Shown: positions 1 to 23,886, counted from the stretch's first letter. The stretch is 64,000 nucleotides of DNA from Octopus vulgaris (GCA_951406725.2 OX597830.1:11408001-11472000); one strand, 5' to 3'. Notes: generated from the sequence alone by a model not told the origin. Program-made: numbers and translations.

Positions 1-61
1 GTTGTATTGATGTCTTTTGACAACGTTTGTTGCTCTGACAGATAGTGTTATATTCCAAAGT

Positions 62-1233: not shown

Positions 1234-1576
1234 TCTCTCTATATATAAACGGCAAAATGTCTGCATGTGTGTCCTTTATACAAACCCACAATTTTTAAGT
1301 TAGAGGGCTTGCACTTACTATGGTCATTCAAAACTGTCCAAGGGTGGTCGTGCACATCTTTACATTTCCCCAGTCACCCCGTAAAGCCATTAAAAAATCA
1401 ATAGAAGTGACTTTTTTGTGAATTTTCTATCCAAAACCCAATCAAAATGCCCGAAACTTGATACACCAATTGAATGCCAGCTAGCTGTGTGTGATTGGTT
1501 GGAGGTTTGGACAGTACTCGTGTGTATGTGCGCATGCACGCAGCTGTATATGCATGCACTAGCACTATAGTGCTAG
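1234..1576 (+). mobile_element. Non-autonomous Helitron-like element
   Basis: A|TC-TCTCTATATATAAA 5' end and CTAG|T 3' end inside the palindrome ACTAGCACTATAGTGCTAGT; the 5' end resembles the element at 54435. Confidence 0.55.
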
Positions 1577-1652
1577 TTAGTACTGAAATGTGCCAAGTTA
1601 ACAGCATATTGAGGTGATACCTGATCCACTGCTTAAATACATAAATAAATTA

Positions 1653-3917: not shown

Positions 3918-4412
3918 TTATCATTACCTCTGACTGCATTTTAAGATAAGCCCCATTTAAATTTGTTCAGGCTTAGCTGTCTCTTTACATATATTTTTGC
4001 CTACATCCCAGCTATGCATGAAGGCTCTTTATGTAATTCATTGTATTTTATTTTATCTTCAATTTATTTATTTATATATAAGTATTTCTCTTACATAATG
4101 TTTATTTTCTTAATATTACCCTTACCCACTTAAGTATGCTTCATAGCATATTTACTTGTGGTTTACTTAACGGAATGCAGTATGTCTGAAATTTAAAATT
4201 TTAAAAAATTCTTTCCTATCTAATAGTTTATTATTATTGTTTTTTACTTTAAAGGCTTCCAATAAATTTTCTTAAGGGATGAACGGATATAGTTTGTATT
4301 TCAATATTTTCTCTTCCCATATTACTATAGATTTGCTATTTATTCCTTTATTTAAATCAAATTTTATTGCATTATGATTATAAACATAAACAATAAGTTA
4401 TTATTATTATTA

Positions 4413-4718
4413 TTCTTTGTAAGCCTAATACTTATTCTATCGGTCTCTTTTACCGAACCACTAAGTTACGGGGACGTAAGCACACCACCATCGGTTGTCA
4501 AGTGATGGTCGGGGACAAACACAGACACACAAACATATACACACACACATACATATATATACATATATACGACGGGCTTCTTTCAGTTTCCGTCTACCAA
4601 ATCCACTCACAAGGCTTTGGTCGGCCCGAGGCTATAGTAGAAGACACTTGCCCAAGGTGCCACGCAGTGGGACTGAACCGGGAATCATGTGGTTTGTAAG
4701 CAAGCTACTTACCACACA
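4413..4718 (-). mobile_element. tRNA-derived SINE (family A)
   Basis: Reverse complement of the TGTGTGGTAAGTAGCTTG...GGTTCAGTCCCACTGCGTGGCACCTTGGGCAAG head and body. Confidence 0.85.
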
Positions 4719-4949
4719 ACCAATAAAACTGAAGCATCAGGGAGTGTTTATCCAACAGTGATGTTTATTAGTAAATAAAGTTAAAAGACTTCTTAGGCAC
4801 ACAATACTTTTGTCACCCTGATTTGCAAGAAGAAATTCAGTCAGAAAGGATACAGTACCAGAGACAAGATAGAAACAATCTCCCACCTGGTCATCCAAAA
4901 TGCTTGATACCTATTCTCAGCCTACTACATTCCCAATTTTAGAAGAGAA

Positions 4950-5311
4950 TCATCATCATCATCATCATCATTTAGCGTCCGTTCTCCATGCTAGCATGGG
5001 TTGGACGGTTCAACTGGGGTCTGTGAAGCTGGAAGGCTTCATCAGGCCCAGTCAGATCTGGCAGTGTTTCTATGGCTGGATGCCCTTCCTAACGCCAACC
5101 ACTCCGTGAGTGTAGTGGGTGCTTTTTACGTGCCACCCGCACAGGTGCCAGACAGAGCTGGTAAACGACCACGAACGGATGGTGCTTTTACGTGTCACCG
5201 GCACGGGGGCCAGGCGAGGCTGGCAACGGACACAAATGGATGGTGCTTTTACGTGCCACCGACACGGGAGCCAGACAGAGCTGGCAAACGGCCACGAAAC
5301 GGATGGTGCTA
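4950..5311 (-). mobile_element. 5'-truncated RTE LINE 3'UTR with (GAT)n tail
   Basis: (CAT)n followed by the conserved ..CCATGCTAGCATGGGTTGGACGG..GGATGCCCTTCCTAACGCCAACCACTC block and ~60-bp repeats, as found downstream of the RTE ORFs. Confidence 0.85.
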
Positions 5312-5339
5312 AAAATATGTTTCTTTACTGCCCACAGGG

Positions 5340-6780
5340 GGCTAAAATTGAAAAAGATGGCAGCTGCATGTTTCCCTTGGATAAACATTGTTGTCATGGA
5401 AAAGTGAGATTTGAATGTGTGTGTAGCTGTCATCTTTCTAAAGAATCTTGACCAGGCTTGCACAGTTTTGCTCAGCTTTGAACAGTGGCAGTCTTTATCA
5501 AATGGAAATTTATTAACAATGATATTCCCCAACATCTTGACTTTCTTTCTCTTCTCAGTGCCCAACAATATGGCCTCTGTAAAACCAGATTCACTGGTAA
5601 TTTGTTCTCTTAAGTCACCCACCTGCAGGCTCTTGCTTTAGTGTAGGTCAATGAAAGCATTGTTGTTGCTCTAGACATCAACAAAGCCTTTGACCATGTT
5701 TGGCATGCAAATCTATCAAAACTTCCCTATTACGAACTCCCTCCATCTCACATCTCTTACATTAGTACTTTTCTATCAGATTAGACGACTGCCATGGAGT
5801 TCATTAACAATGCTCTTTCTCTCCTGATCTGAGTCAACTCTAGTGTGCCTCGGGGTTTGATTTTGTCCTCATTCTCTTCCTTCTGTATATCAATGACCTA
5901 CTTGCTATCACCTCCAATAACATTTATTCAGACGACACTACCTTTCGCTCCTCTCTATTCTTCCCCAGCCATGCATTATTCATAAGAACCTAAATGCTAC
6001 ACTTCAAATTTGCACTAATTCTATGAAAGAAGACCTTGAAAAGCATCCTTCAGGAGTGGAAAAACAATGTTATTTCTTTCAACAGCAAAAAAAAAAAAAA
6101 AAAAAAAAGCAGCCCCCACCCCCCCCCCCAACCCAAAAAAAATAAGTACTACTTACATCAAGGAAACACTGTCATACCACACCTTCACTAAACATAAGCA
6201 GCACTTAACTAGAGCTCTCATAGTCACTCCAAATGCTGGATCTTATTATTACCAAAGATCTTTGCTGGTGAAAGCATATCTTTAACCCTTTAGTATTTAA
6301 ACTGGCCATATCCGGCCAAAATATTTAATCTGTTTTATGTTCAAACTGACCAGATCCAGGCTCTCACACCTACCCTACAATGTTATTCTACATTAAGTAA
6401 TTACACCATCAAGATCTTGAAGATATGAGATAATGCATGATTAATTCAAATCAATGGGAATCAATAAGCATTATGTTTGATAGAATAATCTGAACACTAA
6501 AGGGTTAACTAAGAATGCATCTCAAAGATTGGCCTTTCTTTTCAGGGTGAGAAAATATTTCATCCCGCATCAATAATTGACATTACAAAGTTTAAATAAA
6601 GTTTGCAACAGAGTATTTCTCCAACATCTGGGATGCTGCTGCTGCTACCCACATAGACCTCTTCAAGTGTATTCATTGGAAGACCATGTGATTGATTGGC
6701 ATAAAATCACTCACAGACATGCCCCACTCTATGTCCCATGAGCGTGCTATCTCCACCCTCTGCTTTTTCTATAAGTACTA
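5340..6780 (+). mobile_element. Degraded CR1/Jockey-like LINE RT remnant
   Basis: Disrupted frames give ALDINKAFDHVWHA, SSVPRG (SGVPQG-like), YINDL and SDDTT. Confidence 0.7.
6286..6504. mobile_element. piggyBac-type MITE
   Basis: TTAA|CCCTTTAGT ... ACTAAAGGG|TTAA; inserted within the LINE remnant. Confidence 0.8.
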
Positions 6781-7087
6781 CTCCCAGGAGTTATCTAGTT
6801 TTGTACTTCCACTCGGGCATTCCCAAGTCAATCAACACCTTTTCTCATTACCCCTGTTATGCTCATCTCTCCAGGCCTTGAACTAACCACGACTTGTAGT
6901 CCTTCATCCCCAGAACATTGGCATTTGAGAATCACCTTCCTGCTCATATCTTCCCTATAGATGTTAATTAGCAATGGTTTAACTGATCTCAGAAGGCCTG
7001 CAAATGCCAAGGGCACATGCCCCTTCAACAAGACCCATGCAACCCATTTTCGTTAGGTATTCACAGCCCTTAATCATCTATATACTA

Positions 7088-7302
7088 CGGCGAACTAGCA
7101 GAAACGTTAGTGCGCCAGGTGAAATGCTTAGCGGTATTTCATCTGTCGTTACGCTCTGAGTTCAAATTCCGCCGAGGTCGACTTTGCCTTTCATCCTTTC
7201 GGGGTCGATTAAATAAGTACCAGCTACGCACTGGGGTCGATGTAATTGACTTAATCCGTGTGTCTGTCCTTGTTTGTCCCCTTGTGGGTAGTAAAGAAAC
7301 AG
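7088..7302 (+). mobile_element. tRNA-derived SINE (family B)
   Basis: GGCGAACTAGCAGAA..GAGTTCAAATTCC (B-box)..GCCTTTCATCCTTTCGGGGTCGAT..GTGGGTAGTAAAGAAA; further copies at 43020, 50033 and 51101. Confidence 0.85.
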
Positions 7303-7474
7303 GTGTATTGATAGATGATGGAATCACCAACCAGAAGCCTTGCAACAGAATGAAGTCTGCTGAAGAAACCAAGGGCCAGGTAGTGGTGATAAACCAGGCA
7401 GTGTGAGGTGCCAGTCACTCCAAAACTAAAAACAAGGAATGAAACTGTGAGCCATATAAGAGGGGACCACTTAC

Positions 7475-7928
7475 CTTTTGAAGGAGGAGGACGTTCATTT
7501 CTATTAGTGTCATTGGGTGCAGGCTGAGGACTTCGGTCCAGGAATTCCAGAGCGGTTGCTTGTAGTTCGGTACTACTGACACAAATAGCAACATGAAAGA
7601 CAGTCCTAGCTAAATCATGATTACTTATTTGTTGAAAGAAACTATTAGAAATCTCTATGAATCTTCTTTTTTGCTTCTGTTCTGCTATAGTTTTAGGTTC
7701 ATCAATTTGAAGCAACAAACACAGCCGTTCAAAGATCTCCTTCAGTGCAGCATCAGCAGACATTTTAGCATAGTGCTCCTTCAAATGTGTATCATTTTGT
7801 TTCGTTACGAGAATGTAGCCACGGAATTTATTGAAAGCATTTTGTATTTCTTCAGTTAATTTCATTTTCATATCGTCAAAGACCTTTCTGGTAAGGGTTG
7901 AATCATCTTTCTGAGCACGTTTTATGAC
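7475..7928 (-). CDS. Coding exon 3 of LOTUS/NO VEIN-like gene (gene continues further 3')
   Basis: Acceptor cctttattgtag|GTC in phase 0 matches the previous exon; open frame VIKRAQKDD...PPPSK; donor AAAG|gtaagt (phase 1). Confidence 0.85.
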
Positions 7929-8154
7929 CTACAATAAAGGGTATTGTACAAGTGCATTTGAAAAAAAAAAACAAGTTAGCATTCTGTTGAAGATCAACTC
8001 ATGCTTAGCAAGTGTATAAAAAAAGGGACACTGTAATATTAGTACATTGAATTTAGTGAGCAGTTTCTCTGTAATTATAAGGGCACTAATTCGCTGGAGC
8101 ATGTATGTATTTAGATATTGAGAACTTTAGTATCAATATCTACCACATGATATA

Positions 8155-8954
8155 CAAAGTTGTATCAAATGTCCCTGGGCTAGTTCTGTAGTGCACCAAC
8201 AGATGGCAGCACACAGTTGCGTGCACAGTGAGAGTGAGCAGTGACCTTCGTGAGGCAGTGTGCCAAGTGACATCCCTGCGTTTACTTCACAGGTTAAGAA
8301 ATTTTTGATTTCCTGATCATGTGTATGCTGTAGTCTGTGATTCTTGTCATGGACAGGAACAAAGAGCCAACATGAAACTTTGCATTGAACTCAGGAAGTC
8401 TGCCACAGAGACATTGAGCAAGCTTACAGTGACAAAGCAATGGGCCATGCGCAATATTTTTGAGTGACACAGGCATTTCGAAAGCAGAAGAACGCCCCTG
8501 GAAGACAATGAATGATCTGGAAGACCTGCCATGTGTGTCACCCCCAGAAACATGGTATTGTGCATCAAGAATTGATGCCCCCACCCCACCCCAGGGCCAG
8601 ATTGTCCATCAAGAGCCCTACTGCAATGTTTTGAAGTGTTTGATGGAGGACGTTTGGGGAAAATGACCGAATCTGTAGAGCACAAAGAACTGGATTCTTC
8701 ATGATGACAATGCACCCTGTCACCAAGCTCTCCTCACTCGTGAGTTTCTTGCCAAAAACAATATGGTATCACTTCTACACCCACCCTATTTGCCAGATTT
8801 AGCACCTGCAGGCCAGATTCCAAAAGTGGCAGTAATGCTGAGATCAGTATATTGCTGCGCAAAGTGACTATTTTGAAGGAGGTATTAAAACTTAGGAAAC
8901 TAAGTTATTTTTTATTAAACATAACTAGTCCAGGAACCTTTTGATACCACCTTG
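8155..8954 (+). mobile_element. Internally deleted mariner/Tc1 element
   Basis: TA-flanked imperfect ~30-bp TIRs (CAAAGTTGTATCAAATGTCCCTGGGCTAGT / ACTAGTCCAGGAACCTTTTGATACCACCTTG); remnants WILHDDNAPCH and HPPYLPDLAP. Confidence 0.85.
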
Positions 8955-9599
8955 TAGACAGATTGGTACCTTTCGTGTTCGTACCTAGCAGTTTCAAATA
9001 CAAATTTACACAAACAAACTCAAGGTTCAAATGTTGGCAGTAAAACACATTTCTACCTGTGAATATTTTAAGCTCAGAGCCGATTTTCATTTCACAAAAG
9101 TAAAATGAGAAAAGAGGTGTAAAATTCTTTTTCAAAGAGTAATGGTTAAAGCCATTGTCTAGAAAACTTGATTTAATGCTCCGTAATGTTAACAAATAAG
9201 GCAGCAAGCTGGCAGAATTATTAGCACATTGGACAAAATGCCCAGCAGTATTTCTTCCAGCTCTTTATGCTCTCAGGTCAAATTCCACCAAAAGTCAACT
9301 GTGCCTTTCATTGTTTTGGGGTCAATGAAATAAAGTAGCAGTCAAGTGCTGGGGTTGATGTAATCAATTTGCTTCCTCTTCCTCCTCCCAAAATAGGGGA
9401 GGAGGAATGTTGGGATCTCAGTCATTTATATGCCATGAAAATTGCATAACTGGCTTATGAGTCCAAGGGCTTGATAAAGAAAATATAATCAAAAGGTTTG
9501 CCAAAGAGATATTAGTATGTGGAGAGACCAGCCATCCAAGTTGACAGCAATATGATAGACTGGTAAGGGATGTGAAAGAAAGGGGAGCAGCAGTTGGGA

Positions 9600-9920
9600 A
9601 AGACTATCTTAACAATGATAGTTGCCAAGACTCTTAAAATATCTGGCACAAAAGGATGGAGAATAGTCACTCAAATTGTAAATCAAGTAATACAAAGTAT
9701 CATACTAAGCAGCTAGCACTGCAAACTGCTACAAGTACAAGGAGAAATGTACTAGAGAGAGGTAACTACAAAGACATCAGAACTGTTGGGCAAAGTTATG
9801 AAAGTTACAGAAAAAGTTACTGAAAACCTAATTAGTGTAGATGAGATGCAATTCAGTTTTGTTTCAAGAAAAGGCATCACTGAAGCTATATTCCTTGTGA
9901 GACAACTGTAAGAAAAATAT
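9600..9920 (+). mobile_element. Highly degraded RTE RT fragment
   Basis: DEMQFSFVSRKGITEAIFLVRQL-like sequence homologous to the other RTE copies. Confidence 0.7.
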
Positions 9921-10617
9921 TGCACGTTGCTCCAGTTTACTCAGCTGGCAAAAATGAATTGTACCTGTATTTCAAAGGGCTGGACTTGTCACACTGAATC
10001 TCCCTGAGAACTACGTTAAAGGTACACGTGTCTGTGGATTGCTCAGTCACTTGCACATTAATTTAACGAACAGGCTGTTCCATTGATCGTTTCAGCTGGG
10101 ATTCTCGTCGTAACCGACGGAGTGCTCCTTTTTATAATGAGTATAAATTAGTTGTATGTTATGTAGTGTGTGACCATAACTAGAACAAGTTTTAAACCAA
10201 GGGATTAATAAAAGTAATTGAAGAATATATATTAATTTATGGACATTTAATTAATTTTATATTTTTACATATAATGTTGTAGTTTTAAATTATTGCGAAT
10301 TTAGAATTTTTCTCTGTAAATGGTATATTACATCATGTTTATTTGATTATTTTTTATTTTATCATTAAATACATACAACTATTTATTTATTGTATATCTA
10401 TTGTTTACATCATGTTTAACAAGATAGGCTTTTTACAATGCTAGATTGTAAGTTTAAAGTTTAAAATTTTTTTTAACTGGTTTTCATCAATAAGATAAGT
10501 CATGTTTTTGCTTTACATTAATATTGTTATACTTTATTGAATTATTTACTGTCAATATACAAATATTTATATATTTATTATTTTATTATAATATCTAAAT
10601 TTATTTATGTTATTTTT

Positions 10618-10713
10618 TTGACCTGAAGAGTGGCTAAATATTTTTTTATTGAATTACTATTAAATTTTAATATTATTGATTTATATATTTAGTCATGAAA
10701 CACGCATAGTCAA
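10618..10713 (+). ncRNA. Degenerate minimal hammerhead ribozyme (Penelope-type)
   Basis: TTGAC-CTGAAGA-G-TGGCTAAATAT...ATATTTAGTCAT-GAAA-CACGCA-TA-GTCAA; loop 3 looks like CpG-decayed ACGCGCGT. Confidence 0.6.
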
Positions 10714-11838
10714 TTTAATGTTTGATTTGTTATGAAATTTTTAGAATAATAATTGTAAGATATATAATTAATTTCTATGTTGTTATTATAGATAATAACT
10801 TCACTATTGATGGAATAACTAAATAGTGGTTGGTCTCTAAATTATATATATGTCGGATTGAAACATCTGTAGGATTTTTATCAGTTATTTTTGGTTGTTT
10901 TTTTTATCCAATTTCTTTTATTCTTATTCTTGTATGTATCACTTTTACTTTGCATGACACAAATAAAATGAACCAAGCATCTATTTAAATTTTCAAATTT
11001 TTCAAATTTTTTTTCTTGTGAAAAGATGTCTCCCATCATTCTGAAGACTTTGATGAAAAACACTGGAAAAAATCCCTGTCAAAATGCAGAAATTTCAACT
11101 TATGTGGGCTGTCTGATCTAAAACTTCATTTTCCAGAAACCCTTCTCCCTCACCCCTCAGAAAAATTTTTTCCAATATATCTTTACATACACTCAATCAA
11201 CAGGATATAAGCAATTTGGTGAAAGTTTCATTAAAAAGTATTTATTTTTCTGGAAGTTATGAGGCAAATAATTTGGTGGAGTATTAAACAGAAGTTATGC
11301 CTTTTTTCAATAAAACTTAACCTTAACAGATTAACGTTAACTATCTTCACCTGACAGTTGAGAAGTCAGTTCTAATCCTTTTGATACCAACCTGCCTGAA
11401 ACACACACTGGGTTCATAATCTAAAAAAGTTCCAAATTTAAACCTTTGAATAAAATTTCATGTTAATTGCTGTTCCAAATGTCAGCTTAATAAAAAACAT
11501 AATTATTTACTAAATTCTTCATTAGTTTCAAAATTAATTAAAAGAAAAGCAGTGTTAAGAGGGCTAAGAGAGCAATTAGTTGTGAAAACAAGTTTTCAAT
11601 GACATAAATACCCAAATTTTAAAAAATAAAACCCTTGCCCAAGCTATTATATGAAAACTGAAAGAAAACATAATAGAGATAAAAAGAAAATAATCAAAAA
11701 TAAAAGAAATAAAGCAAAATCAGTATTGTCACATAATTGTGTCATCAATTGATATGAAACTATCTGAGAGTCATTAATTTCTTGAAATAAGAAAAGGATA
11801 AACGATTCCAAAATTTAAATAAAGAAATGTATCCTTAC

Positions 11839-13184
11839 CCCAATAGCAAGTGGAAGGCTCCGCAAGCGAATTCCAAGGTGAAATGGATCACTGCAGTGAA
11901 AAGCCTTCGTCAAAAATGTCATAACTTCCTGCATTTCATGTTTTTTGTACCAATTATTCTCATTAAGAAAATTTCTTATATTATCTAAAACATCCATTGT
12001 AGAGAGTTCTGGGAAACTGTCTTCACCAGGAGGAAATTTAAATAAATCAAAAACAATTTGCATCTTATGTAAAGGTCCAAGTTTGAGGCTTTGAAAAGAA
12101 TTGCTTTCATTAACATAAAGTGCAATGCATTCTTCCAGTTCTTTCAGTGTACAGACAGACCGAACTGTCACAAAGGCTTGAATATAAGCGTTAACTTTAC
12201 AGACCAAACGATTATGATCATGAACTGACGGCAAATGATCTAAAGTACGAATACCAAGTTCTCGTAAGTTTTTTCTTCTAAGGCGTTGAAGGAAAAGATT
12301 TTCAATGGCTTGAATAGACACACATTCATTATTGTCAGAAAGTATTTCAATACATTCTTTGGCAATTTTGTCAAGACGTTCTTTAGTCAGAGTCTCTCCA
12401 GGGGCAATATTTAAAGGCGGTACTAAAATTTCTTTTTCATTCGTTTTTGGTGGGGGTAGTTTTGAGAAAGGTGCGAGGTGGAAGCTATCAGTGACATGTG
12501 GCTGTTGTTGCATGGCGGGAAATGCTGGCTCACCCCATTTAGGAGCTGACATTTGATTAACATTGGAGGGATAAAACATGTTATGGCTGGGAGTATTGTG
12601 TTCCTTCAAATAAATCATTATCATATTGTTCTGTACTAAAACACTAAAACACCGAAACTCAGGCAACTTAAAAAGTTCTTCAAAATTACTGACATTATAA
12701 TCTAACAAGTTAAATTTTGACTTGTGATACATTCTCTCATAGTTATCCAGCAGTTTCGGCAGTGGCATGCCCTGAGGAAAGTTCAGAAGAACGTCACAAA
12801 ATCTGTGTCTCACTTCTGCTAGAGATGGCTTTGATGGGTTACTTCTTATTGTTTCATTAAGTGAGGGAAAATGATACATGTTCTCGCCTAAGTAAGATGA
12901 GTTTCTGTCAATAGACGGTTCATTGAAATCACTCGAAGTTTTCTTCTGTATATATAACTCATTCTTGTCACTCACCTCTACCACAATATCAGAGAAATGT
13001 TTCAGAAATTCATATAAGTTACTGAAACCATAGGATGAGGGATTCACAAAATGTCTTTGCTTCTCAGCCACCTTATTCCAAAACTGATCACGTTTTACTC
13101 TACCTCTGTTCTCATCAAGTACTTCACATATGACTTTCTTAAGTTCTTCAATACTGGGTTTATTTACTGCTTTCATTTCATTCT
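11839..13184 (-). CDS. Coding exon 2 of LOTUS/NO VEIN-like gene (two LOTUS-like domains plus NOV N-terminal-like region)
   Basis: Acceptor ttctttccag|AG joins the phase-1 G of exon 1 in frame; 1346-nt open exon; motif KVNAYIQAFVTVRSVCTLKELEECI..SFQSLKLGPL resembles NO VEIN proteins; donor ATTGGG|gtaagg. Confidence 0.88.
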
Positions 13185-13494
13185 CTGGAAAGAAGAAAAT
13201 ATGTCAATTGAATGTTATTAATAAAAAGCAAAACTATCATTATCAGTAAATCAATCAGATTGTAGAAATGCAATCTAACATTTGGTAGATAACCCATGAA
13301 AATAGCAGGCAATGAATTCAAAGAGTTTCATCAGTCTCTTTGCCAAAAACTTTTATGACATTTAATGTAATCCGTCAGTTGATGTTGGTGTCATTAAAGT
13401 GTGTTCATATTTAGATGATAATAGTGTATAAGTATGCGTGTGAGTCTATGTCTCTGCATTGTGTGTGTATGTGTTTATAAATAGAAATAGTAGT

Positions 13495-13957
13495 TGTGAT
13501 ACCTGTGCCGGTAGCACATAAAAAGCACCATCCGAACGTGGCCGATGCCAGCGCCGCCCCGACTGGCTTCTGTGCCGGTGGCACATAAAAAGCACCATCC
13601 AAACGTGGCCGATGCCAGCGCCGCCCTGACTGGCTTCTGTGCCGGTAGCACATAAAAAGCACCATCCGAACGTAGCCGATGCCAGTGCCGCCTTGATTGG
13701 CTTCCGTGCCGGTGGCACGTTAAAAGCTCCAACTGATCGTGGCCGATGCCAGACCCCCCTGGCACCTGTGCAGGTGGCACGTAAAAAGCACCCACTACAC
13801 TCGCAGAATGGTTGGCGTTAGGAAGGGCATCCAGCTGTAGAAACTCTGCCAGATCAGACTGGAGCCTGGTGCAGCCCCTGGCTTCCCAGACCCCGGTCGA
13901 ACCGTCCAACCCGTGCTAGCGCGGAAAACGGACGTTAAACGATGATGATGATGATGA
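13495..13957 (+). mobile_element. RTE LINE 3'UTR with about five tandem ~60-bp units and (GAT)n tail
   Basis: Repeated GTGCCGGTRGCACATAAAAAGCACCATCC units followed by the conserved tail. Confidence 0.85.
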
Positions 13958-14450
13958 GTAACAAAGATGTACAAGTGTCAATTTATTACAGTCGTTTCAA
14001 GTGACTCCTTCAATTGATTAAAAGAAACATTACATCATTTGAAAGAAACCATTCTCTTCAGACGACCGCATAAACTTCAAACATAAAGAATGCAACCATT
14101 TCCTTAACATATTCACGTCAATAATGGAACTCAAAATATTTACATTGTTTCTTCGTTATATCTGTGGCAGAATGAGTTTAGAAAATAATGCATATCTCGT
14201 TAAGTCTATTATAATTTCGAGAGCAGCAGAGGAAATAGTGAGGGTCAGGATAAAAAGAGTAGTGACCTAGTTACTTACACTTAGAAGACTTTATGTAGAA
14301 TGTAGTCATCAACCATTCGGGATTAAATCAAATCCGTAGGGAGTTGTCAATTGTATTCTAGTTAATGGTAATAAATCAACTAATGTCAGACAATCTACTA
14401 GACCCTCACTGTACTGGAACCATATATCTATATATGTATGTGGGTGTATA

Positions 14451-14498
<48 letters not shown>

Positions 14499-14783
14499 CA
14501 CATACAAAAAAGGGTGAAATATAATTAATTTAATAAAATTAATAAATTTCACCTAGTAGATTTTTCGGTATGGAAAAGACCATATTTGGTAAGAATGATA
14601 TTAATTATAATAAAGGGTTAATTGCAACAAGTTGCTCAAAACTACATACCGAAAATATTAGAAATAGCAGCCAAATAGATCAATATTTCTCCTACTAATA
14701 AAAAAGTCTCCACAAACAAACAGAATTTGTAATCGGTATATGGTAAAGAGAAAGAAAATAACGAAATCCCAGCCTATGGATTA

Positions 14784-14841
14784 ATTATAGACGAATCGTT
14801 TCTGGATTAGAACCGAAGGTTCATTTCCTTGTCAATATGAT
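14784..14841 (-). ncRNA. Minimal hammerhead ribozyme, U3:A8 core variant
   Basis: Minus strand: ATCATA-TTGACAA-GGAaatGAACCttcGGTTCtaaTCCa-GAAA-CGATTCG-TC-TATAAT, within a Penelope-like terminal remnant (~14510-14875). Confidence 0.6.
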
Positions 14842-14868
14842 ATTTCCTATAAATCTAGAAATGCTAGG

Positions 14869-14899
<31 letters not shown>

Positions 14900-14901
<2 letters not shown>

Positions 14902-15303
14902 CATAGGAGTGGCTGTGTGGTAAGTAGCTTGCTTACCAACCACATGATTCCAGGTTCAGTCCCACTGCATGGCACCTAGGGCAAGTGCTTTCTACTATAG
15001 CCTCAGGCCAACCAAAGCCTCGAGAGTGGATTTGGTAGACGGAAACTGAAAGAAACCCGTCGTATATATGTATGTGTGTGTAAATGTTTGTGTCTGTGTT
15101 TGTCCCCACCAACATCGCTTGAGAACCGATGATGGTGTGTTTATGTCCCCATAACTAAGCAGTTCGGTAAAAGGAGCCCGATAGAATAAGTACTAAGGCT
15201 TACAAAGAAAAAGTCCTAGTTTCAATTTGCTTGACTAAAGGTGGTGCTCCAGCATGGCCACAGTCAAATGACTGAAACAAGTTAAAGAATAAAGAGTAAA
15301 AGA
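14900..15303 (+). mobile_element. Full-length tRNA-derived SINE (family A)
   Basis: A-box TGGCTGTGTGG, B-box GGTTCAGTCCC, internal (TG)n, 3' tail GGTGGTGCTCCAGCATGGCCACAGTCAAATGACTGAAAC plus AAAGAG repeats. Confidence 0.88.
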
Positions 15304-15665
15304 ATATATATATACATGTATGTGTGTATATGCATATATATGTATATTTGTGTGTATGGATGTGTGTGTATATGTGTATATATATATTTATATAAGTCTT
15401 ATGTAGAACCCATGTTTGGAAACCTTGTGATATACTTAGATTGTTGAAAAAATAGATAATATAGCCCCTGGAATGGACCTTTATATCTACCTTATATGAC
15501 TAATTTTTTTTAACAACCAAGGGAAATAACCCATAGCACCTGTACAATATTTTTTACACACTCGAGGGAAATAACAAATTTCATTGTTTATGTTCGATTA
15601 CTTTGAACATTGATATTTTGTGTCCTATTTCTAATTTTTGCAGACAATATCACTTTTATACTTTA

Positions 15666-16850
15666 CTAGCTTAAGGTGACCAGCTCTATGCGCGGGTGAG
15701 GGTGTAGTTGTTGCTTTCTGTTGCTTCCTTTCTGTTTCTTATCGCCACATTCTCCCTCTTTATTTCTCTCTCCTTTCTCTCTCACTTTCCCACTCTCTTA
15801 CTCTTCCTTTCTCTCGGACTCTCCCTCGCTTTCTCTTACTCTCTATCTTTATCTATCTCTCTCCCATTTATAAACAACAAAAGATCTTGAGTAAGTTGAG
15901 AAAGATAATATTTTGAAAGATCAATCATAAATATCAGGCAGTGACAACGGAAAGGTCTGCTTCAAGGCAAACAGCAAAACACTAACATTTAAAAGGGGCA
16001 GACGAACTTGTGAGCTGAATAAAAATAAAAAAATATTGGAAACCAAAGTTTGAAGGGATAGAATCTAAGGATAGTAGACTCACCATGGCTGGCATTCAAA
16101 ACATCTTAACGACGGACAGCAATGTACTGGCAGTTTAACAGGGTTAAAATTTTGGCACAAAATTTTGAACTTGATGTAAAAGAAAATTCCTAAACACCAA
16201 GTTTTGAAGTGATTCTTTCTTGCGACAGGAGACTCACCATGGCAGGCATTCAAAATTTCTTCATGACAGACGGCAACATATTGACGATTTAAAGGCTGTT
16301 GCAAATTTTTTAGCGTGATGTAACAGAGAATTCCTAAATACCCCCTCCTGTAAATTTTAAAACCTTTCCATCCCCATTTAGACCCCTTTTCACATAAAAA
16401 TCCAATTTGTATCAATGTAATAATTCACCGTTCTAAAGGACCCGTGGCGGGAAATTAAAATTTTTGCAGCTGTCAATGCTTTCTATCTATAGATACAGAC
16501 AGACGTACAGTGAGAGAGGTGATGGAAGAAAGAGTGACAGAGAGACGATGAAGCTGTCAAGCGTTGTTATAGAAAGAAAGTCGAGGGAAGGAAGGAAAGA
16601 GAGAGATGGAAGACAGGGTGATATGCGAAAGAGAAACGACAAACACTTGTCAAAGTGTGGGTTTTGTTGCCCTAGTAACCACAGCTTTTGAGATAGGGGT
16701 TTCTAACCTAGTCCACTCACTTCCTCGCCTCCTTTTACATGTCCCTGTAAATTTTGGAGCCAATCTGACCCCATCTAGTGCCCCTTAAACCGTTCCCATC
16801 CCAAAATGAGACAAACAAATTTTTTTGCATTTCAGCTTTATAGATATTGA
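15666..16850 (-). mobile_element. Non-autonomous Helitron-like element
   Basis: Minus strand A|TCAATATCTATAAAGC ... ACCCGCGCATAGAGCTGGT (hairpin-like)..CTAG|T; a second internal 5'-end-like motif lies near 16490. Confidence 0.55.
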
Positions 16851-16859
16851 TTTGACACT

Positions 16860-18230
16860 TGAGTATAACTGCCTTACTTAAAGCAGGTTATACAGATAAA
16901 GTCACTTACACTAATTCCATTCAATCTTATTCTACCTTTAGTAATGGAGACATGAAATCTAGTTGTAAGGATATAAACGATATCAATTTTAATTTATACG
17001 CCAACAGCAAACAGAGGAAGGGAGACAACCATTATTTAAACCTCTTTTTTCATTCTAAAGATAAATCGATGTCTTTTAAAGTTAGTTACACTAAAACTAA
17101 GGCAGCTAATAGCAAAACACTTTGGTTGATTATTCCTTATGGGAGGCAAATTAAATCTAATCTTCCTTTCCAGTTTCAGGAAGCTATTATTAGGAATTTT
17201 CCATAGAATTCTAGGTATTACTCTATTATCAACTCGCACACAGTTAGGATTGGTTTTTCTAACACAAAAAATCTCTTACAAATTATCTCCTCACATAATA
17301 TTAGTCTGTTAAATAGGAATCCATTAACTAATACTAACATTAATTTAGCTGATAACAACCATCCCACTAGAAATATTAATAACAGGGTTATTGTCTCTAA
17401 AGTTAATTCCAACAGAATTAAGTTTATGTCTAGTAATTCTAAGATCAGGAACTCTATATATCATTGAAAAATTACTTCAGGTACCGATGTCTTTTTTATA
17501 CAGATAGTTCTTCTCAGTTATCTAAAAGAATTTCTAATCATTACTCTACATTTAAGGATAATAATAAACGTAACAGTACAGGGCTTAGTAAATTAATTTG
17601 GTATCTAAAAGACCATAACAAACAATTAATTTAGATTGGTTGATTCTTTCCATTTCATTCCCATAAGATAAAGGCAAAGAGTTTTGTCAACTCTGTCATT
17701 TTGAACTATTTTTATTCTTTTTTCTAAGAATCCCCTTGTAAACACGGTTATAGAGCGTGTTTATCAATGTAAACATTGGCAGAAACATACCTTTAGTTCA
17801 TATAAGTGACATCAATCATTATATATAATTTGAACATTGATTTTCTTCTTACATTTCACTTCCACTAGATATAACTTTTTTCAAGACTTTAGGCTTTTAT
17901 TTAATTCACATATAGTTCTATATTTCTCATTTATTTGGTTTCTGTTTACTTCTTTCCTTTACCCCTCCTCTTTCTATAGGCTACCATTGACGTTATATCC
18001 GCTAACGTTTTTCAAAAAAAAAACTTAATAGCATTCCGTTCATCATTATACATATACATCATATTCTGTTAAAATGTCTTATTGATGAGTTTGTTTTATT
18101 TCTTTATTTCCCTGAAGAGAAGATTACATTGTTTTTCACAATTTTATTCCTTTGGAATAATACCAATGCTGTCTTTGAAACATGTGGTGGAAGTAAAAGA
18201 ATTTGAATAACACCTGCATTTAACCCCATT

Positions 18231-18235
<5 letters not shown>
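16860..18235 (+). mobile_element. Penelope-like element 3' part (degenerate GIY-YIG endonuclease plus terminal repeat)
   Basis: 17430-17830 is homologous to the GIY-YIG region at 40790-41210; a degenerate CTGAAGA...GAAACATGT hammerhead motif lies at ~18112-18190. Confidence 0.7.
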
Positions 18236-18280
<45 letters not shown>

Positions 18281-18282
<2 letters not shown>

Positions 18283-18780
18283 AGCAGTATAGCCCAGTGT
18301 TGCCCAGGATTAAGTTAGAATTATTAAGCTAATCAAGTGCTTTGTTTCAAACCAAACTAAGTAACACTGATGTCAAATTTGAGCAAAATCCGTTGAAATT
18401 GGTAAACTTTTGGCTGAAAACGGATTGCAGATAATTTGATTGGTAAATCCCATAACGATTTTTTTTTTTTGAGAAGTTAAAGCATTCATAGATCCCATGA
18501 GTCCTAAGTAACGCCGGCATCAAGTTTGAAGAATATACATCAAAATTAGTAAAAGTTATGGTTGAAAATGGGGTGTAGCCAATTTTAGTGAGAAATCCTA
18601 TAAGGAATCAGTTTATCAATTTTTCATCCTGAGTGAATGGAAAATACCAAAAAGAATCAGTTTATTGATTTTTCACCCCAAATAGGACTTAACCGAACAC
18701 AACACTGCTGATTCCAAAAATCTATATTTGTACTTTAAAGTTGGCTTTCACACCCAACCCAGTTCTGTAGAATCAGTGTT
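18281..18780 (-). mobile_element. Helitron-like element 3' part (extent approximate)
   Basis: Plus-strand CTAGCAGTATAGCCCAGTGTTGCCCAGG is the reverse complement of a hairpin plus CTAG 3' end. Confidence 0.45.
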
Positions 18781-19150
18781 GCGACAGGAATGCAAGAGTT
18801 TGGAGTTTGACAGGCAGATTGCACATGCTGGCCCTTTCAAAACCACCACCCCTATTATCTAACCCCACTTGGCCCATGGGTTTCGAGCCCTTTCAGCAAG
18901 GAAAATAGAACTCCCAAAAGGGCTGCCAGTCCTCTGTGCCAGAAGAGATTATGTTTGGATCACAACTAAGCCTTAACATAAGCCTAAGCTAACCTAGTGA
19001 AAGGGGGCTCAGAAGCCTCTGAAAAGCAGCGACTAATCCTGATCTAGACCTAACCCCTCCTAGGGTACTATCAGTCAAGTGATTCACACCCTGGAAAATT
19101 TATTTCAGTAAAATGTTGGGAGTGGGTAAAATTTCCGAGGCTTCCACCTG

Positions 19151-20252
19151 ATCAATACAAAATTTAAATCTAGAAAGGAACCCACCTATAATAGGGATAT
19201 ACAGGTTTTAGCAGATAATATTTGGAAGGTGGTGAAAAATATTAAATTTCATAAATACCCAAATAAGCACAATGAATATTTAAGAAATCTAGCTATTAGA
19301 ATAAAAGAAATGTGAAATATAGAAGGAATTATAGTACAATCAGATAAAACTAGGAACCTGTATAAACTAGATGTTAAATTATATGATAACCTATTAGAGA
19401 AATAAATAAATAAAAAGTATGAAATTGCTCCAGAAAATACTCTTTATAATATAAATAAATCCTCTAAATTAATCATGATGAAATATAAGTTATACAATAA
19501 AACTGAACCTTATGTACCTATGCACCCTAGAATTACTTTAAAAGACCATAAGCATAATTTTTATTCTGACCCAAAAGTTAGACTTATTTGTCCTTGTAAA
19601 TCAGATCTAGGTAAATTAAGTAAGATCATTTTAGATAAATATATTAATAGATTAAATGAAATTAATTACTTTAAACTTTGGACTAGTACTAATGATACTT
19701 TATAATGGTTTAATAATATTAAAGATAAAAATAGATATAAATTCATTAAAATAGATATAGATAATTATCATTCTTCTATAAATGAGACTGTACTAAACAA
19801 GGCCCTAATTTATGCAATGAATAAGGTTGGAATGACATATAATGAAGTTAATGTAGTTAAAGCAGCTAGGAAATCGTTGATTACATATAATAGTAAATTG
19901 TTGGCTAGGAAGGATACTAGGGACTATTATTTTGATATACCTATGGGGGCACCCGATTCTGCACAGGCAACAGATTTAGTAGGTATTTATTTATTTATTA
20001 TCGGAAGTTCAATTAGAAAAATTAAAGTTGGAGGGTGGTTTATATAGGGATGACCTTTTATTAATAACTAAGAATTGCATCAATAGAACACTAGAATTAT
20101 ATAAGAAGAAACTATATAGTTTTTTTTAAAAGACATGCATTAAGAATTATTATTGATAAAGAGAACTATAATGTTAATTATTTAGATGCTAATTTTAATT
20201 TAATAACAGGTAAAACCCAACCATTCCATAAAATTAATGAAAACCTTAGATA
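19151..20252 (+). mobile_element. Penelope-like RT fragment (left arm of a 1.1-kb inverted repeat)
   Basis: PRITLKDHK..PKVRLICPCKSDLGKLSK, FDIPMGAPDSAQATDLVG, then YRDD after a frameshift. Confidence 0.85.
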
Positions 20253-20377
20253 TATATATATATATATACACATGCATACATATGTGTATATGTGTGTATA
20301 TATATATATGAAAGAAATATATATATATATATATATATATAAATATATATATACATACATACATATATATATATACA

Positions 20378-20465
<88 letters not shown>

Positions 20466-20467
20466 TA

Positions 20468-20500
<33 letters not shown>

Positions 20501-20504
20501 GCAC

Positions 20505-20538
<34 letters not shown>

Positions 20539-20672
20539 GCACATATATATATATATATGCACATATATATATATATATGCACATATATATATATATATGC
20601 ACATATATATATATATATATATGCACATATATATATATATATGCACATATATATATATATATATATATGCAC

Positions 20673-20704
<32 letters not shown>

Positions 20705-20755
20705 GCACATATATATATATATATGCACATATATATATATATATATATATATATT
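20250..20755. repeat. (TA)n microsatellite with recurring ATGCAC interruptions
   Basis: Seen directly. Confidence 0.95.
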
Positions 20756-20928
20756 CTTAGCTACGTGGTTTCGGGTTCAATCCAACTGCGTGGCACTTTG
20801 GGTAGGTGTCTTCCACTATAGCCCCGAGCCGACCGGAGCTTTGTGATTGAATTCGGTAGGTGGAAGTTACTGCCGTGTGTGTATGTGTGCGTATAGCTGC
20901 TCAGTGCCTCTCTGAAAGAGAGAGAGGG

Positions 20929-20962
<34 letters not shown>

Positions 20963-21084
20963 GCATATATATATATATAAGTCTAAACCTCTTTTTCAGT
21001 GCAAATTATAATTATTTCATTTCATTATCATAAACGTCTGCATGTGAATCTCCTTAGGGATAAAACAGTGTAGATAAACGGAAA

Positions 21085-22035
21085 TTCAGACTGGATAGAT
21101 GAGTGGATGGAGTTCAGAGGACAACTATACAATCTAAGTAAAGAAGTTTTAGGAGTCAAGGAAAAGAAACATCAAGATTGGTTTGATGAAAGTGATGGAA
21201 ATATTCCACATTTGTTGGAAGGAAAACAAAAGGCATTGCATTTGTTACTCGCATATGATTCTGACCAAAATAGAGCTTTTTCCAAAGAGATAAAAGCAAA
21301 GATTCGATACATGCAGGAAACTTGGTTGCGGAAGAAAGAAGAGATAGAGGCTGATTCCAATGTTAAGAACACTAAGTCATTATATATTTTCCTTCAAGAG
21401 GTGTATGGGCCATCATGTCCTACTTTGGTTCATGTGAAGAATAGGAATGGTTTTTTATTGAGGGAGCCCAAAGACATCTTAAAACAATGGGAGGAACATT
21501 TCAATGAACTTCTGAAACGACCATCAGTTGTTGATGAAAAAAGTGTTGATATGATTCCACAGAATGCATTAATTGAACGCTTAGAGGACACTCTGTCAGT
21601 GGAGGAAGCAATAAAAGCAATATCAAAGCTGAACAATTATAAAGCACTGGGAGCTGATAGTCTGAATGGTACTACATGCTGGAAATGCTGACAGAAATAA
21701 TGCAGAAGATATGGGAAAATGAAGTTATGCCAAAAGATTGGAAGGATGCGGTCATGGGAGTTGTGTTCAAGGGTAAGGGACAAAAAGATGAATGCAATAA
21801 CTTTTGTGGTATTTGCCTGCTTGCTTACACCCGGCAGAGTTTTATCACATATAATGTTGGAGCGGCTGCAGATCTATGTGGTTAATGAGATTCTTCACAG
21901 AGCGGATTCAGAAATGGTAGGGTTACTGTTGACATCATGATCTCTGCACGGTAGTTACAGGAAAAGTGTGTGGAACAACAAATAGGATTTTATCAGGTAT
22001 TCAGTGATCTTACTAAGGCTTTTGACTCTGTTTTC
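21085..22035 (+). mobile_element. Degraded RTE (BovB-like) LINE fragment, second RTE family
   Basis: HQDWFDE, EVYGP, W.EHFNELL.RPS, KALGAD, MPKDWKDA, CNNF.GICLL, DLTKAFD. Confidence 0.8.
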
Positions 22036-22209
22036 TTGCATTAATTGTCAAAAAGCATGCAAGTCTTTGGCAGGCCTCAAAAGCTATATTCGTTCAGCTC
22101 ATGTATGATATTCTAGGACATAAAGAAGTCAAGCAATGGCTCTAATCGAAATCGAGTTAGTAACCTTCATGTATGTACATATGTGTACATCTGTGTGCTT
22201 ACACACATA

Positions 22210-22635
22210 TTTATAAGATCAACATCAATGGAAATTGTAGCTGTGATACCAGTGCCAGAGGCACGTAAGAGAACCATCCGAACGTGGCCGTTGCCAGTGC
22301 TGCCCCGACGGGCCTCCGTGCCGGTAGCACGTAAAAAGCACCATCCGATCATGGCCGTTGCCAGCCTCGCCTGGCCCCTGAGCTGGTGGCACGTAAAATG
22401 CACCATCCGATTATGGCTGTTGCCAGCCTCGCCTGGCACCTGTGCCAGTGACACGTAAAAAGCACCCACTACACTTACGGAGTGGTTGGCGTTAGGAAGG
22501 GCATCCAGCCATAGAAACACTGCCAGATCAGACTGGAGCCTGGTGCAGCCTCCTGGCTGCCCAGACCCCAGTTGAACAGTCCAACCCATGCTAGCATGGA
22601 AAGCGGACGTTAAGTGATGATGATGATGATGATGA
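22210..22635 (+). mobile_element. RTE LINE 3'UTR copy
   Basis: ~60-bp repeat units plus conserved tail plus (GAT)n. Confidence 0.85.
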
Positions 22636-22664
22636 TATATAAAAAGAAACAAATATTTACAAAC

Positions 22665-22914
22665 CTGCTTTTAACTTCACATATGAAATATTATTTGTTG
22701 ACACAATTTCAAGGTTATCATAATATTCAAATAATTCATTCATGCTCTTCACACCATATTTGTTTTTTGGTCCAATCCCTTTAATGTTGTGGTTAATAAA
22801 ATCCCAAAAATGAACTTTTTCTATACCTTGTGGATGTTGCTTTAAGAGGTTTACAATCTCTTGTTTCAGCCACATCCTTTTCTTCCCTTTAAGGGATGAT
22901 GGTGGATCTTCCAT
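22665..22914 (-). CDS. First coding exon of LOTUS/NO VEIN-like gene (LOTUS-like domain 1)
   Basis: Acceptor ttttttttccag at 22926, ATG at 22914 (gaaATGG), 250 coding nt MEDPP...YVKLKA-G, donor GCAG|gtttgt in phase 1 matching the next exon. Confidence 0.8.
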
Positions 22915-23886
22915 TTCTAATGGTACTGGAAAAAAAATTAACAAGAAATTTAAAATTAAAATTTGGAAGATATATTGTTCAAAGAAAGAGGCAAAAAAAA
23001 GTATTAGTTTAGATTAATATGCAAGCATCAAGTGCTGATCTCTGATTGTGGGAGGAACTTGAGGAAGAGGTAGACCCAGGAAGATGTGGGATGAAATGGT
23101 GAGAAAGGATCTTCAGACAGAGGAAATGACAAGGGACTAAGACTGCTAGTGATTTGCTATGCATATCAAGCTAAGTAAAATCATGGTTGTCCTTGCATAC
23201 AGGAATGTCTCCTACAACCCTCTTCAGCTGAGTGACCCTAATTCTGCAGGATTGTGGGTACTGGTGCCATGTATAAAGCACTTGTGCCAGTGCTGCATAA
23301 ATGCACCCAGTACACTTTGTAAAGTGGTTGGCATTAGGAAGGGCCTCCAGCCATAGAAGCCTTGCCATAACAAACAACTGGAGCCTGTGCAGCTTTTCAG
23401 CTGTCCAGTTCCTGTCAAACCATTCACAAAGTATATCCCATATTATTTTTTTTTGATTGCTGAACAGAAGCCCTCAACCTAGTTCAATGCATTCTAGCAC
23501 TTTAATTCCAGTTGAGTTGAAATTCATAAACTCATGTAGATGAACTCGATGGGGATAGGTCAGATAACTGCCACAAGATAAAGAAGTGAAAATTTTATCA
23601 TTAATTTTCATTTAGAAAAGAACATAATTTCTTCAACATTTTCATACAAGAAAAATTTCTTATAGTATGAAAATTCATCATGCTCATTACTGATTTAGGC
23701 CGAGGTGTAGCAAAAAAGTGCAAAGTGGAAAAAGAGGGTGGTGTACTGATAGATTTCCATGCGGTGAGAAGTCATATGGAAGACAAATTCAAGGCTTGAA
23801 ATATTGAAGAAAGTGCTGAAATTCTTTTTCCTATGTTATCTATCAACAATTTAACTGAGGGTGGGTGATTACTATTAGCATTAAAA

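Follow-up and report, generated by a model that had tools for sequence, protein, structure and literature searches.

A transcribed Octopus vulgaris locus carries the 5' end of a NO VEIN/Tiamat gene with three predicted minimal-type LOTUS repeats

The three coding exons found in the window, the 64,000-nucleotide stretch of Octopus vulgaris DNA that was analysed, almost certainly form the 5' end of a large, intact and spliced cephalopod gene of the NO VEIN (NOV)/Tiamat family. The encoded protein is probably an active ATPase-nuclease, judging from its catalytic motifs. We propose RNA-steered nucleic-acid surveillance as its role, a tentative reading to which we assign a probability of about 0.45. 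Plants, molluscs, and fish have retained this bacterial antiphage ATPase-DNase, which makes the family of current interest; the locus adds to it a cephalopod gene that is intact and whose 5' end is backed by transcripts.

All features reported here lie on the minus strand. Coding exon 1 (22665..22925; residues 1–83) contains the ATG at 22914, which is fixed as the start because an in-frame stop lies 12 codons upstream, and transcript contigs span 22665–22926 in all four runs. Coding exon 2 (11839..13184) encodes residues 84–532, and coding exon 3 (7475..7928) encodes residues 533–683, a helical linker of the NOV N-terminus showing 70% identity with Argonauta; intron 3 (1..7474) continues past the window edge. 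The sequence-only reading had described three exons splicing in frame at GT-AG sites, and this held: the spliced translation gave GT-AG ends with compatible phases of 1 and 0, all 11 of the 11 quoted motifs appeared in it in order, and the contigs supported both junctions. At the exon 1–2 junction, the loose ends of contigs coincided with the start of exon 2 in 4/4 runs (three studies). The exon 2–3 junction (7928/11839) was bridged by a contig of X1, one of the four runs, the other three having no contig there. A non-coding exon 0 (5' UTR; 43848..44110) was delimited by loose contig ends placed at 43849 in 4/4 runs, with the donor GTAAGT after 43848; its outer edge, estimated from a loose end of 255 nt or more, is put at 44110. 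The transcript support for junctions covers the first three, from exon 0 to exon 3.

Beyond the window, tblastn and the gene model placed 29 more coding exons at G000:C17:11407782 down to 11323563. The complete model has 32 coding exons, GT-AG ends at 31/31 introns, and a protein of 2,874 amino acids with the terminal stop only; the predicted mRNA of ~9,360 nt agrees with transcript contigs of 9,326 and 9,396 nt. Because this 2,874-residue frame is open and the contigs are spliced, the pseudogene and chance-ORF readings of the locus were both dropped. The protein was 62.9% identical to the Argonauta 'protein NO VEIN-like' over 2,913 columns and ~39% identical to the best other molluscan proteins. 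The NOV_C search detected one copy in the genome.

The sacsin-like GHKL ATPase and the DUF3883 nuclease that had been predicted from the window were both found in downstream exons. The ATPase core (exons 12–14, 11386261–11382374; Pfam, PADLOC) and the NOV_C nuclease (exon 32, 11324074–11323563; NOV_C search, Pfam, PADLOC) lie ~22 kb and ~84 kb before base 1 of the window, from which they had correctly been reported missing. The ATPase exon matched PADLOC TmtA with an E-value of 2e-27 and the nuclease exon with one of 3e-22; the proposed Pfam check gave 68 bits for the nuclease exon against NOV_C (cut-off 22.1). Pfam SACS matched one exon partially (E 2e-4) and the Argonauta orthologue at 52 bits. 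At the sequence level, the octopus protein is collinear with that of Argonauta, whose residues 1165–2862 match TmtA PDLC03972. The catalytic Glu/Asn and glycine boxes of a sacsin-type GHKL ATPase are present, as the residues E1239, N1243, G1310, G1312, K1314, and T1361 are invariant in 33/33 relatives. The C-terminal NOV_C/DUF3883 domain likewise has the active-site residues of a PD-(D/E)xK nuclease: E2751, D2786, and E2808 occur in 31 and K2810 in 32 of 33 relatives, two of which are partial proteins. It should be noted that the G1 box reads N-N-E-x-G, compared with D-N-G-x-G in HtpG; it is family-invariant yet non-canonical, which weighs against the surveillance role.

Three LOTUS/OST-HTH repeats had also been claimed, and profile tests bore this out. 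Repeat 1 (22669..22878; residues 13–82), repeat 2 (12940..13152; residues 95–165), and repeat 3 (12604..12822; residues 205–277) all belong to the LOTUS family by sequence, and repeat 2 by its predicted model as well. Pfam OST-HTH passed repeat 2 alone (24.2 vs. 23.8 bits), leaving repeat 1 below the cut-off (E 0.008) and giving no match to repeat 3. A jackknife profile built on 47 non-cephalopod repeats detected repeats 1, 2, and 3 at E-values of 4e-17, 1e-15, and 2e-7, with 0 matches in the reversed protein. The similarity between repeats 1 and 2 exceeded 2000/2000 shuffles; the pairwise similarity of repeats 1–3 and 2–3 was weak, being equalled by 29/2000 and 72/2000 shuffles, and repeat 3 is the most diverged. 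A NOV-LOTUS profile matched the canonical LOTUS of the O. vulgaris genome (probability 98.5, E 2e-15) and the TDRD7 LOTUS 2/3 (E 2e-8).

When exon 2 was folded from the single sequence (mean pLDDT 44), repeat 2 was the only confident part. The AF2 model of repeat 2 had a pLDDT of 66–88, and the top five hits of its fold search were all LOTUS domains, the best being TDRD7 (Z 10.3, rmsd 2.5, 75 aligned); its matches comprised the LOTUS domains of TDRD7, TDRD5, Tejas, Oskar, and MARF1. The model of repeat 3 resembles repeat 2 in the order of helices and strands at a pLDDT of only ~37–53, and repeat 1, searched against the PDB as a single sequence, gave no match. The winged-helix core of LOTUS/OST-HTH was recovered through repeat 2, and repeats 1 and 3 are assigned by profile homology. 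The outcomes that the sequence-only reading had named as contrary to it (a non-LOTUS fold, missing NOV ATPase/DUF3883 homology, unsupported junctions) were not observed, with repeat 2 the only one folded confidently.

That reading had also pointed to Vasa and germ granules. A germ-granule or piRNA effector recruited by its LOTUS repeats via Vasa/DDX4 would fit the best fold matches of repeat 2 (TDRD7, TDRD5, Tejas, and Oskar) and the listing of testis, in one preprint, among the zebrafish tissues with high expression. However, Vasa binding is reported to depend on a C-terminal extension of LOTUS (PMC5458760), and the extension motif, found in 2/2 TDRD5/7-like first LOTUS domains of the O. vulgaris genome used as controls, occurred in 0/53 and 0/121 repeats of NOV-type proteins. 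The best tail of a NOV-type repeat scored 13, compared with 49 between the two controls; these tails are rich in Pro/Gly/Ser (0.31 vs. 0.07) and lack conservation, and repeat 2 begins 12 residues after repeat 1. The extension forming helix alpha5 of eLOTUS was not recognised in the repeats; this helix is disordered without Vasa, and its absence from the AF2 model weighs little. On these sequence features, the octopus repeats are minimal-type LOTUS without the Vasa-binding extension motif. This type, together with an NLS-like motif beside the nuclease, weakens the germ-granule branch, which we consider very improbable.

Minimal LOTUS cores without the extension are reported to bind RNA that is G-rich or forms G-quadruplexes (PMC7498356), and bacterial Tiamat is described as an ATPase and ssDNase with a predicted dimer at both ends (10.64898/2026.09.30.754977). 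According to the same preprint, ATP hydrolysis, ssDNA cleavage, and antiviral activity were demonstrated only for the B. cereus Tiamat. In the surveillance role proposed here, the octopod protein may retain both the Tiamat ATPase/ssDNase and the LOTUS RNA-binding activities. It would likely be an ATP-driven clamp cutting single-stranded DNA, and its LOTUS array would likely bind RNA and steer the nuclease to RNA-bound sites. A bipartite basic motif adjoining the nuclease could permit nuclear entry, and the targets would be DNA strands exposed beside RNA, namely viral or retroelement intermediates and R-loops, in the soma as well as in the germline. RNA steering would be dispensable for the family as a whole, because plant NOV and 5/38 relatives have no LOTUS detectable by profile. 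The repeats are merely mildly basic (K+R vs. D+E of 10/7, 13/12, and 9/8 for repeats 1, 2, and 3), which counts against the proposed role.

A cytoplasmic P-body factor of RNA turnover, resembling MARF1, would use its tandem minimal LOTUS repeats to bind mRNAs and decapping scaffolds, with a nuclease that acts on RNA or is secondary. MARF1 is reported to couple multiple LOTUS domains to a nuclease and to bind 3' UTRs via LOTUS (PMC7279887), the octopus repeats are of the minimal type, and a P-body localisation was predicted in the preprint for 191/918 eukaryotic Tiamats, about half of them with LOTUS. The preprint's language-model tool gave P-bodies rather than the nucleus for many LOTUS-Tiamats, a point against surveillance in the nucleus; this prediction is extrapolated from human training data, which tells against the P-body role. 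We regard the P-body role as unlikely, since bacterial Tiamat reportedly left ssRNA uncut (10.64898/2026.09.30.754977), the octopus nuclease is PD-(D/E)xK and not NYN, and the protein carries the NLS-like motif. MARF1/Limkain-b1 is an analogue of the octopus protein, not an orthologue: it likewise joins tandem minimal LOTUS to a nuclease, and repeat 2 matches its LOTUS at Z 7.3, but the octopus protein has another nuclease fold, an extra GHKL ATPase, and no RRM or NYN.

The NLS-like motif is located in exon 31, at residues 2684–2698. The pattern KR-x(9-16)-K[KR], picked after the alignment was viewed, occurred just upstream of the nuclease in 12/31 proteins, compared with 4/3,400 random windows and 24/6,200 shuffles. 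A stricter bipartite-NLS pattern was found in 2/29 proteins only, and among the relatives checked the motif was missing from fish, skate, and most gastropod proteins. The suggested survey of LOTUS-NOV distribution yielded LOTUS in 33/38 relatives by profile, Pfam marking far fewer. Their number ranged from 0 to 3 (0–2 in other molluscs), and repeat 1 was kept at the N-terminus across molluscs. The gene is conserved from molluscs to fish and was not detected in ecdysozoans (insects, nematodes) or tetrapods.

These patterns also bear on the possibility, which we place on the unlikely side, that the protein resembles Arabidopsis NOV in being a nuclear factor exapted for housekeeping, aiding transcriptional or developmental programmes, with LOTUS as a variable accessory that has no guiding role. 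The single copy, the conservation from molluscs to fish, the NLS-like motif, and the variable LOTUS number agree with it, as do plant NOV, which is nuclear and essential and whose knock-down dampens defence-gene induction, and the broad expression of the zebrafish gene given in the preprint. Meanwhile, the catalytic-motif residues are retained by nearly all relatives, repeat 1 persists in molluscs, and such a patchy distribution is commoner for defence genes. A single conserved copy is more in keeping with housekeeping than with an arms race, which tells against the surveillance reading.

The LOTUS-NOV/Tiamat architecture is already published, and the locus represents no novel type of system. 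Two bioRxiv preprints of October 2026 (10.64898/2026.09.30.754977 and 10.64898/2026.09.30.755639) report such fusions from aquatic eukaryotes, molluscs and fish among them, with predicted RNA or P-body roles, so the locus does not stand as the discovery of an 'uncharacterised' factor: the fusion, its aquatic range, and the idea of RNA or granule targeting appear in these preprints. The words 'octopus' and 'cephalopod' are absent from the main text of 10.64898/2026.09.30.754977. Compared with the animal members carrying N-terminal LOTUS (zebrafish wu:fj29h11; Argonauta P0038), the octopus gene has an identical domain order end to end and the same Pfam LOTUS, SACS, and NOV_C; it has three LOTUS repeats, whereas the preprint gives four for zebrafish. 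Bacterial TmtA, a single-gene antiphage ATPase-DNase, shares the conserved catalytic motifs seen in the TmtA-matching octopus exons; the octopus gene differs in ~1,150 more N-terminal residues, 32 coding exons, and the lack of a defence-island context, and its antiviral role is only a candidate, as is the RNA-targeted or genome-defence effector of the sequence-only reading. The eLOTUS proteins Oskar, TDRD5/Tejas as well as TDRD7/Tapas have the same winged-helix core as repeat 2, in contrast to which the octopus protein has neither the Vasa-binding extension motif nor a Tudor or OSK domain. As far as the text of the two preprints goes, three points are added here: the non-Vasa type of LOTUS, its being commoner in molluscan members than Pfam implies, and the NLS-like motif in many molluscan members. 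They turn experimental attention away from germ granules, to RNA binding and to ssDNA substrates in the nucleus.

The block following the repeats (11839..12438; residues 333–532), earlier likened to the NO VEIN N-terminus, is compact and helical and comprises units U1–U3. Its search yielded 230 relatives at E<=0.001, animal NOV and plant-type proteins with SACS/NOV_C included, as befits the eukaryote-specific N-terminal motifs. Arabidopsis NO VEIN and plant-type NOV have this block, the ATPase, and NOV_C in common with the octopus protein; canonical LOTUS was absent in 4/4 plant-type proteins tested, and the preprints say likewise for land plants. The AF2 model of the block (pLDDT 95.8) has no wing hairpin, and it gave no PDB match above Z 4.9 and none at Foldseek E<=0.001, which implies neither a new nor a different fold. 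An Atlas feature search with residues 255–448 of exon 2 gave OST-HTH clusters at 0.88, suggesting a cryptic LOTUS in the block. When submitted without the LOTUS repeats, the block gave nothing related (best 0.78); the 0.88 therefore reflects context leakage, and this result was dropped.

The units U1, U3, U4, and U5 were mutually similar (U1–U5 probability 87, E 4e-6; U1–U4 probability 71), and when 67 windows were compared with U1, the top six lay on U3–U5, leaving aside two windows overlapping U1. The NOV N-terminus labelled 'unannotated' is made up of repeated HTH-like units, for which an origin from LOTUS is only a candidate. It is conceivable, though we think it distinctly unlikely, that in all eukaryotes the NOV N-terminus consists of five wing-less HTH units from LOTUS, an RNA-binding arm that joined Tiamat before the plant–animal split, with the LOTUS of aquatic animals a later extension, and that the protein is a nuclear RNA-tethered ssDNA nuclease for R-loops and viral or retroelement DNA. 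If true, the protein would tie DNA cleavage to RNA independently of Argonaute, in animals as in plants. The NOV N-terminal units did not match the canonical LOTUS profile, U1 matched NOV-LOTUS with a probability of 29 (E 6e-4), which one background window equalled, and in the fold search with the block model the Tejas LOTUS came no higher than rank 17 (Z 4.1), level with HTH folds such as TetR. The U1 profile matched 4/4 plant-type proteins at E-values of 2e-12 to 2e-6.

The 5′ end of a NO VEIN (NOV)/Tiamat-family gene lies on the minus strand of the window. Stop-to-stop frames and the splice-site listing placed coding exon 1 at 22914 (ATG) to 22665, coding exon 2 at 13184–11839 and coding exon 3 at 7928–7475, with GT-AG at the exon ends and compatible phases. 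The sequence-only reading had proposed that these three exons splice in frame, and both the splice-site listing and contigs of public runs bore this out; its quoted motifs were all found in the spliced translation (11/11). The start codon at 22914 is fixed because an in-frame stop lies 12 codons upstream. Exon 1 was exactly covered by contigs in all four runs, from three studies; in each run these contigs passed at one end into the start of exon 2 and at the other into a non-coding exon, whose end is at 43848. At the exon 2–3 junction, a contig from one of the four runs (X1) omits 3,910 bases with correct ends. Such exon-joining contigs are what RNA gives, though the library type of the runs is not on record. 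Provided that the transcript begins that far up, the 5′ UTR in this non-coding exon holds an upstream ORF of 30 codons (about 43950–44045, minus strand), which is in frame with the main ATG, yet stops ahead of it. Within the first intron, a gap of 100 Ns (42133–42232) touches no exon.

For the whole gene, 200 kb beyond the left end of the window were mapped with P0038, the 'protein NO VEIN-like' of Argonauta, and with a Dreissena relative. The resulting model has 32 coding exons, 8,625 nt and 2,874 aa, with a sole, terminal stop and GT-AG introns in 31/31 cases, transcript contigs covering the junctions up to exon 3; frame and homology decided the choice of the acidic exon 11 and of part of the boundaries in exons 28–31, which are of low complexity. 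The product is 62.9% identical to P0038 over 2,913 columns, and the predicted mRNA of ~9,360 nt is matched in length by two contigs (9,326 and 9,396 nt). NOV_C and the N-terminal block each gave at least one match genome-wide. The bivalves Mercenaria, Sinanodonta and Potamilus have two or three NOV paralogues each (P0008/P0009/P0010, P0013/P0016/P0017 and P0014/P0015, some on equally long contigs), versus the single copy found in the octopus genome.

The ATPase and nuclease predicted from the NOV-like N-terminus were located outside the window, in exon 12 (PADLOC TmtA, the bacterial Tiamat, E 2e-27; partial Pfam SACS match) and exon 32 (NOV_C, 68 bits; TmtA, E 3e-22). Among 33 relatives longer than 2,400 aa, Glu1239, Asn1243, the glycine box and Thr1361 of the ATPase were invariant, while the nuclease residues Glu2751, Asp2786 and Glu2808 were kept in 31 and Lys2810 in 32, two relatives being partial proteins. 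The G1 box differs family-wide from that of HtpG, having Asn and Glu at the positions of its Asp and Gly. Past the ATPase core lie four near-invariant arginines, one of which may be the transducer arginine. The GHKL and PD-(D/E)xK labels used here draw on general knowledge of these families, on the HtpG comparison and on 10.64898/2026.09.30.754977.

Three LOTUS-pattern repeats (aa 13–82, 95–165 and 205–277) had been read from the sequence, and their family membership was upheld by profile, the fold being confident for repeat 2 alone. Pfam OST-HTH exceeded its cut-off for repeat 2 only. Against a profile of 47 non-cephalopod repeats, which is not fully independent since the repeats were first gathered with a cephalopod seed, repeats 1, 2 and 3 scored E 4e-17, 1e-15 and 2e-7. 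The NOV-LOTUS family profile matched six canonical LOTUS domains of the octopus genome with a probability of 98.5 and, in the PDB, TDRD7 LOTUS 2/3 (E 2e-8). The predicted fold of repeat 2 (pLDDT 66–88) had as its top five among 48,161 chains the LOTUS domains of TDRD7, TDRD5, Tejas, Oskar and MARF1 (Z 10.3 to 7.3); that of repeat 3 is of low confidence, and repeat 1 is assigned by profile. By profile, one to three LOTUS repeats occur in 33/38 relatives; the 38 are those of 44 long relatives whose N-terminus was defined by the alignment. Pfam labels in the database mark OST-HTH on 5/42 relatives, and a Pfam search of the genome detected 0/3 NOV repeats. Further LOTUS genes of the octopus genome are L024 (C1:161.05 Mb), L025/L028 (C20:34.79 Mb), L023/L026/L027 (C2:36.87–36.89 Mb) and L029 (C23:28.47 Mb); they include two TDRD5/7-like genes with the eLOTUS extension, the multi-exon C2 cluster, which looks MARF1-like, and one more fragment.

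According to Jeske et al. (PMC5458760), Vasa binding requires a C-terminal extension that Oskar, TDRD5 and TDRD7 possess and MARF1 lacks. Two other LOTUS domains of the octopus genome match TDRD5/TDRD7 structures and have this extension, and a pattern and score were taken from them. By these measures the extension occurred in 0/53 repeats of NOV-type proteins and 0/121 in a larger set; the tails after the repeats are unconserved and Pro/Gly/Ser-rich. The repeats are therefore of the minimal type by sequence, and, together with the work of Ding et al. and the binding of G-rich/G-quadruplex RNA by LOTUS cores that lack the extension (PMC7498356), this makes RNA binding a better-supported inference than Vasa binding. 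Of the proposal of an RNA- or granule-targeted effector, the LOTUS identity stood; with the Vasa-binding extension not found in the NOV-type repeats, an effector recruited by Vasa to germ granules is very improbable.

The block said to resemble the NOV N-terminus indeed found NOV relatives, including plant-type proteins. With aa 333–532 as the query, 230 relatives were obtained at E ≤ 0.001 among 1.84 billion representatives; the 150 listed include four proteins that are plant-type as judged by sequence, with SACS in 4/4 and NOV_C in 2/4. AlphaFold2 (104 sequences) predicted a compact, almost all-helical block (pLDDT 95.8), for which Foldseek returned no match. The small helical units U1, U3, U4 and U5 (aa about 347, 472, 683 and 768) are alike by profile, so the region termed functionally unannotated in 10.64898/2026.09.30.755639 is an internal repeat. 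The U1 model is similar to generic three-helix HTH/winged-helix cores at Z 4–4.9, the Tejas LOTUS coming 17th with a score shared by other folds, and the similarity of the units to LOTUS is weak, at background level. An Atlas match of the block to LOTUS was gone once the LOTUS context was removed. LOTUS ancestry of these units is a lead, not a result; neither 'winged' nor 'helix-turn-helix' is applied to the N-terminal motifs in the main text of either preprint (754977, 755639).

Directly ahead of the nuclease, the octopus protein has a KR-x(9-16)-K[KR] motif. This pattern is of the bipartite NLS type. It was present in 12/31 proteins examined (three rows left out; the pattern was fixed after the alignment had been seen, and a stricter one gave 2/29), against 4/3,400 random windows and 24/6,200 shuffles; among those proteins it was absent from fish, skate and most gastropods. 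The motif is a localisation hint that the protein may reach the nucleus. A nuclear housekeeping role of the NOV kind is a rival reading that we consider rather unlikely. Plant NOV has been linked to virus response (10.64898/2026.09.30.755639).

The architecture of the octopus gene is already known and was recently described. The LOTUS-NOV/Tiamat layout is treated in two bioRxiv preprints, both dated 1 October 2026 (10.64898/2026.09.30.754977 and 10.64898/2026.09.30.755639), the latter reporting animal NOVs with LOTUS. According to the former, an N-terminal LOTUS occurs in 316/918 eukaryotic members, molluscs included, and the Tiamat assayed, that of B. cereus, has ATPase activity, cleaves ssDNA and nicks dsDNA, with no cleavage of ssRNA. 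By analogy with Tiamat, the octopus protein would form a dimeric GHKL clamp whose C-terminal nuclease acts on ssDNA, and, by analogy with other LOTUS domains, a minimal-LOTUS RNA-binding array would steer this nuclease. We give a probability of roughly 45% to the reading that such an RNA-steered, nucleus-capable clamp–nuclease acts in nucleic-acid surveillance. RNA turnover in P-bodies, as for MARF1, is unlikely; in its favour is the P-body localisation predicted for 191 eukaryotic members, and against it that the assayed Tiamat leaves ssRNA uncut (10.64898/2026.09.30.754977).

The window also holds remnants of mobile elements. Inside intron 3, positions 1875–3497 (plus strand) contain two long in-frame ORFs of 288 and 252 aa with one stop between them; they gave no Pfam match at E<0.07 and look transposase-like by eye, and the stretch is likely a decayed DNA transposon. 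LINE remnants occupy 38141–41100 (plus strand), inside the 20.9-kb first intron, with an endonuclease and RVT_1 at 38.1–40.7 kb and a GIY-YIG fragment at 40.7–41.1 kb, and 45871–49014 (minus strand), where a second RT element is upstream of the gene. Four retroelement-like fragments, at 19406–20100 (plus), 23775–24730 (minus), 27268–28728 (plus) and 59103–60802 (plus), look Penelope-type by eye, a weak RVT_1 match being obtained for the 59-kb piece only. The 19.4-kb and 24-kb fragments are near-identical and flank exon 1 in opposite orientation.
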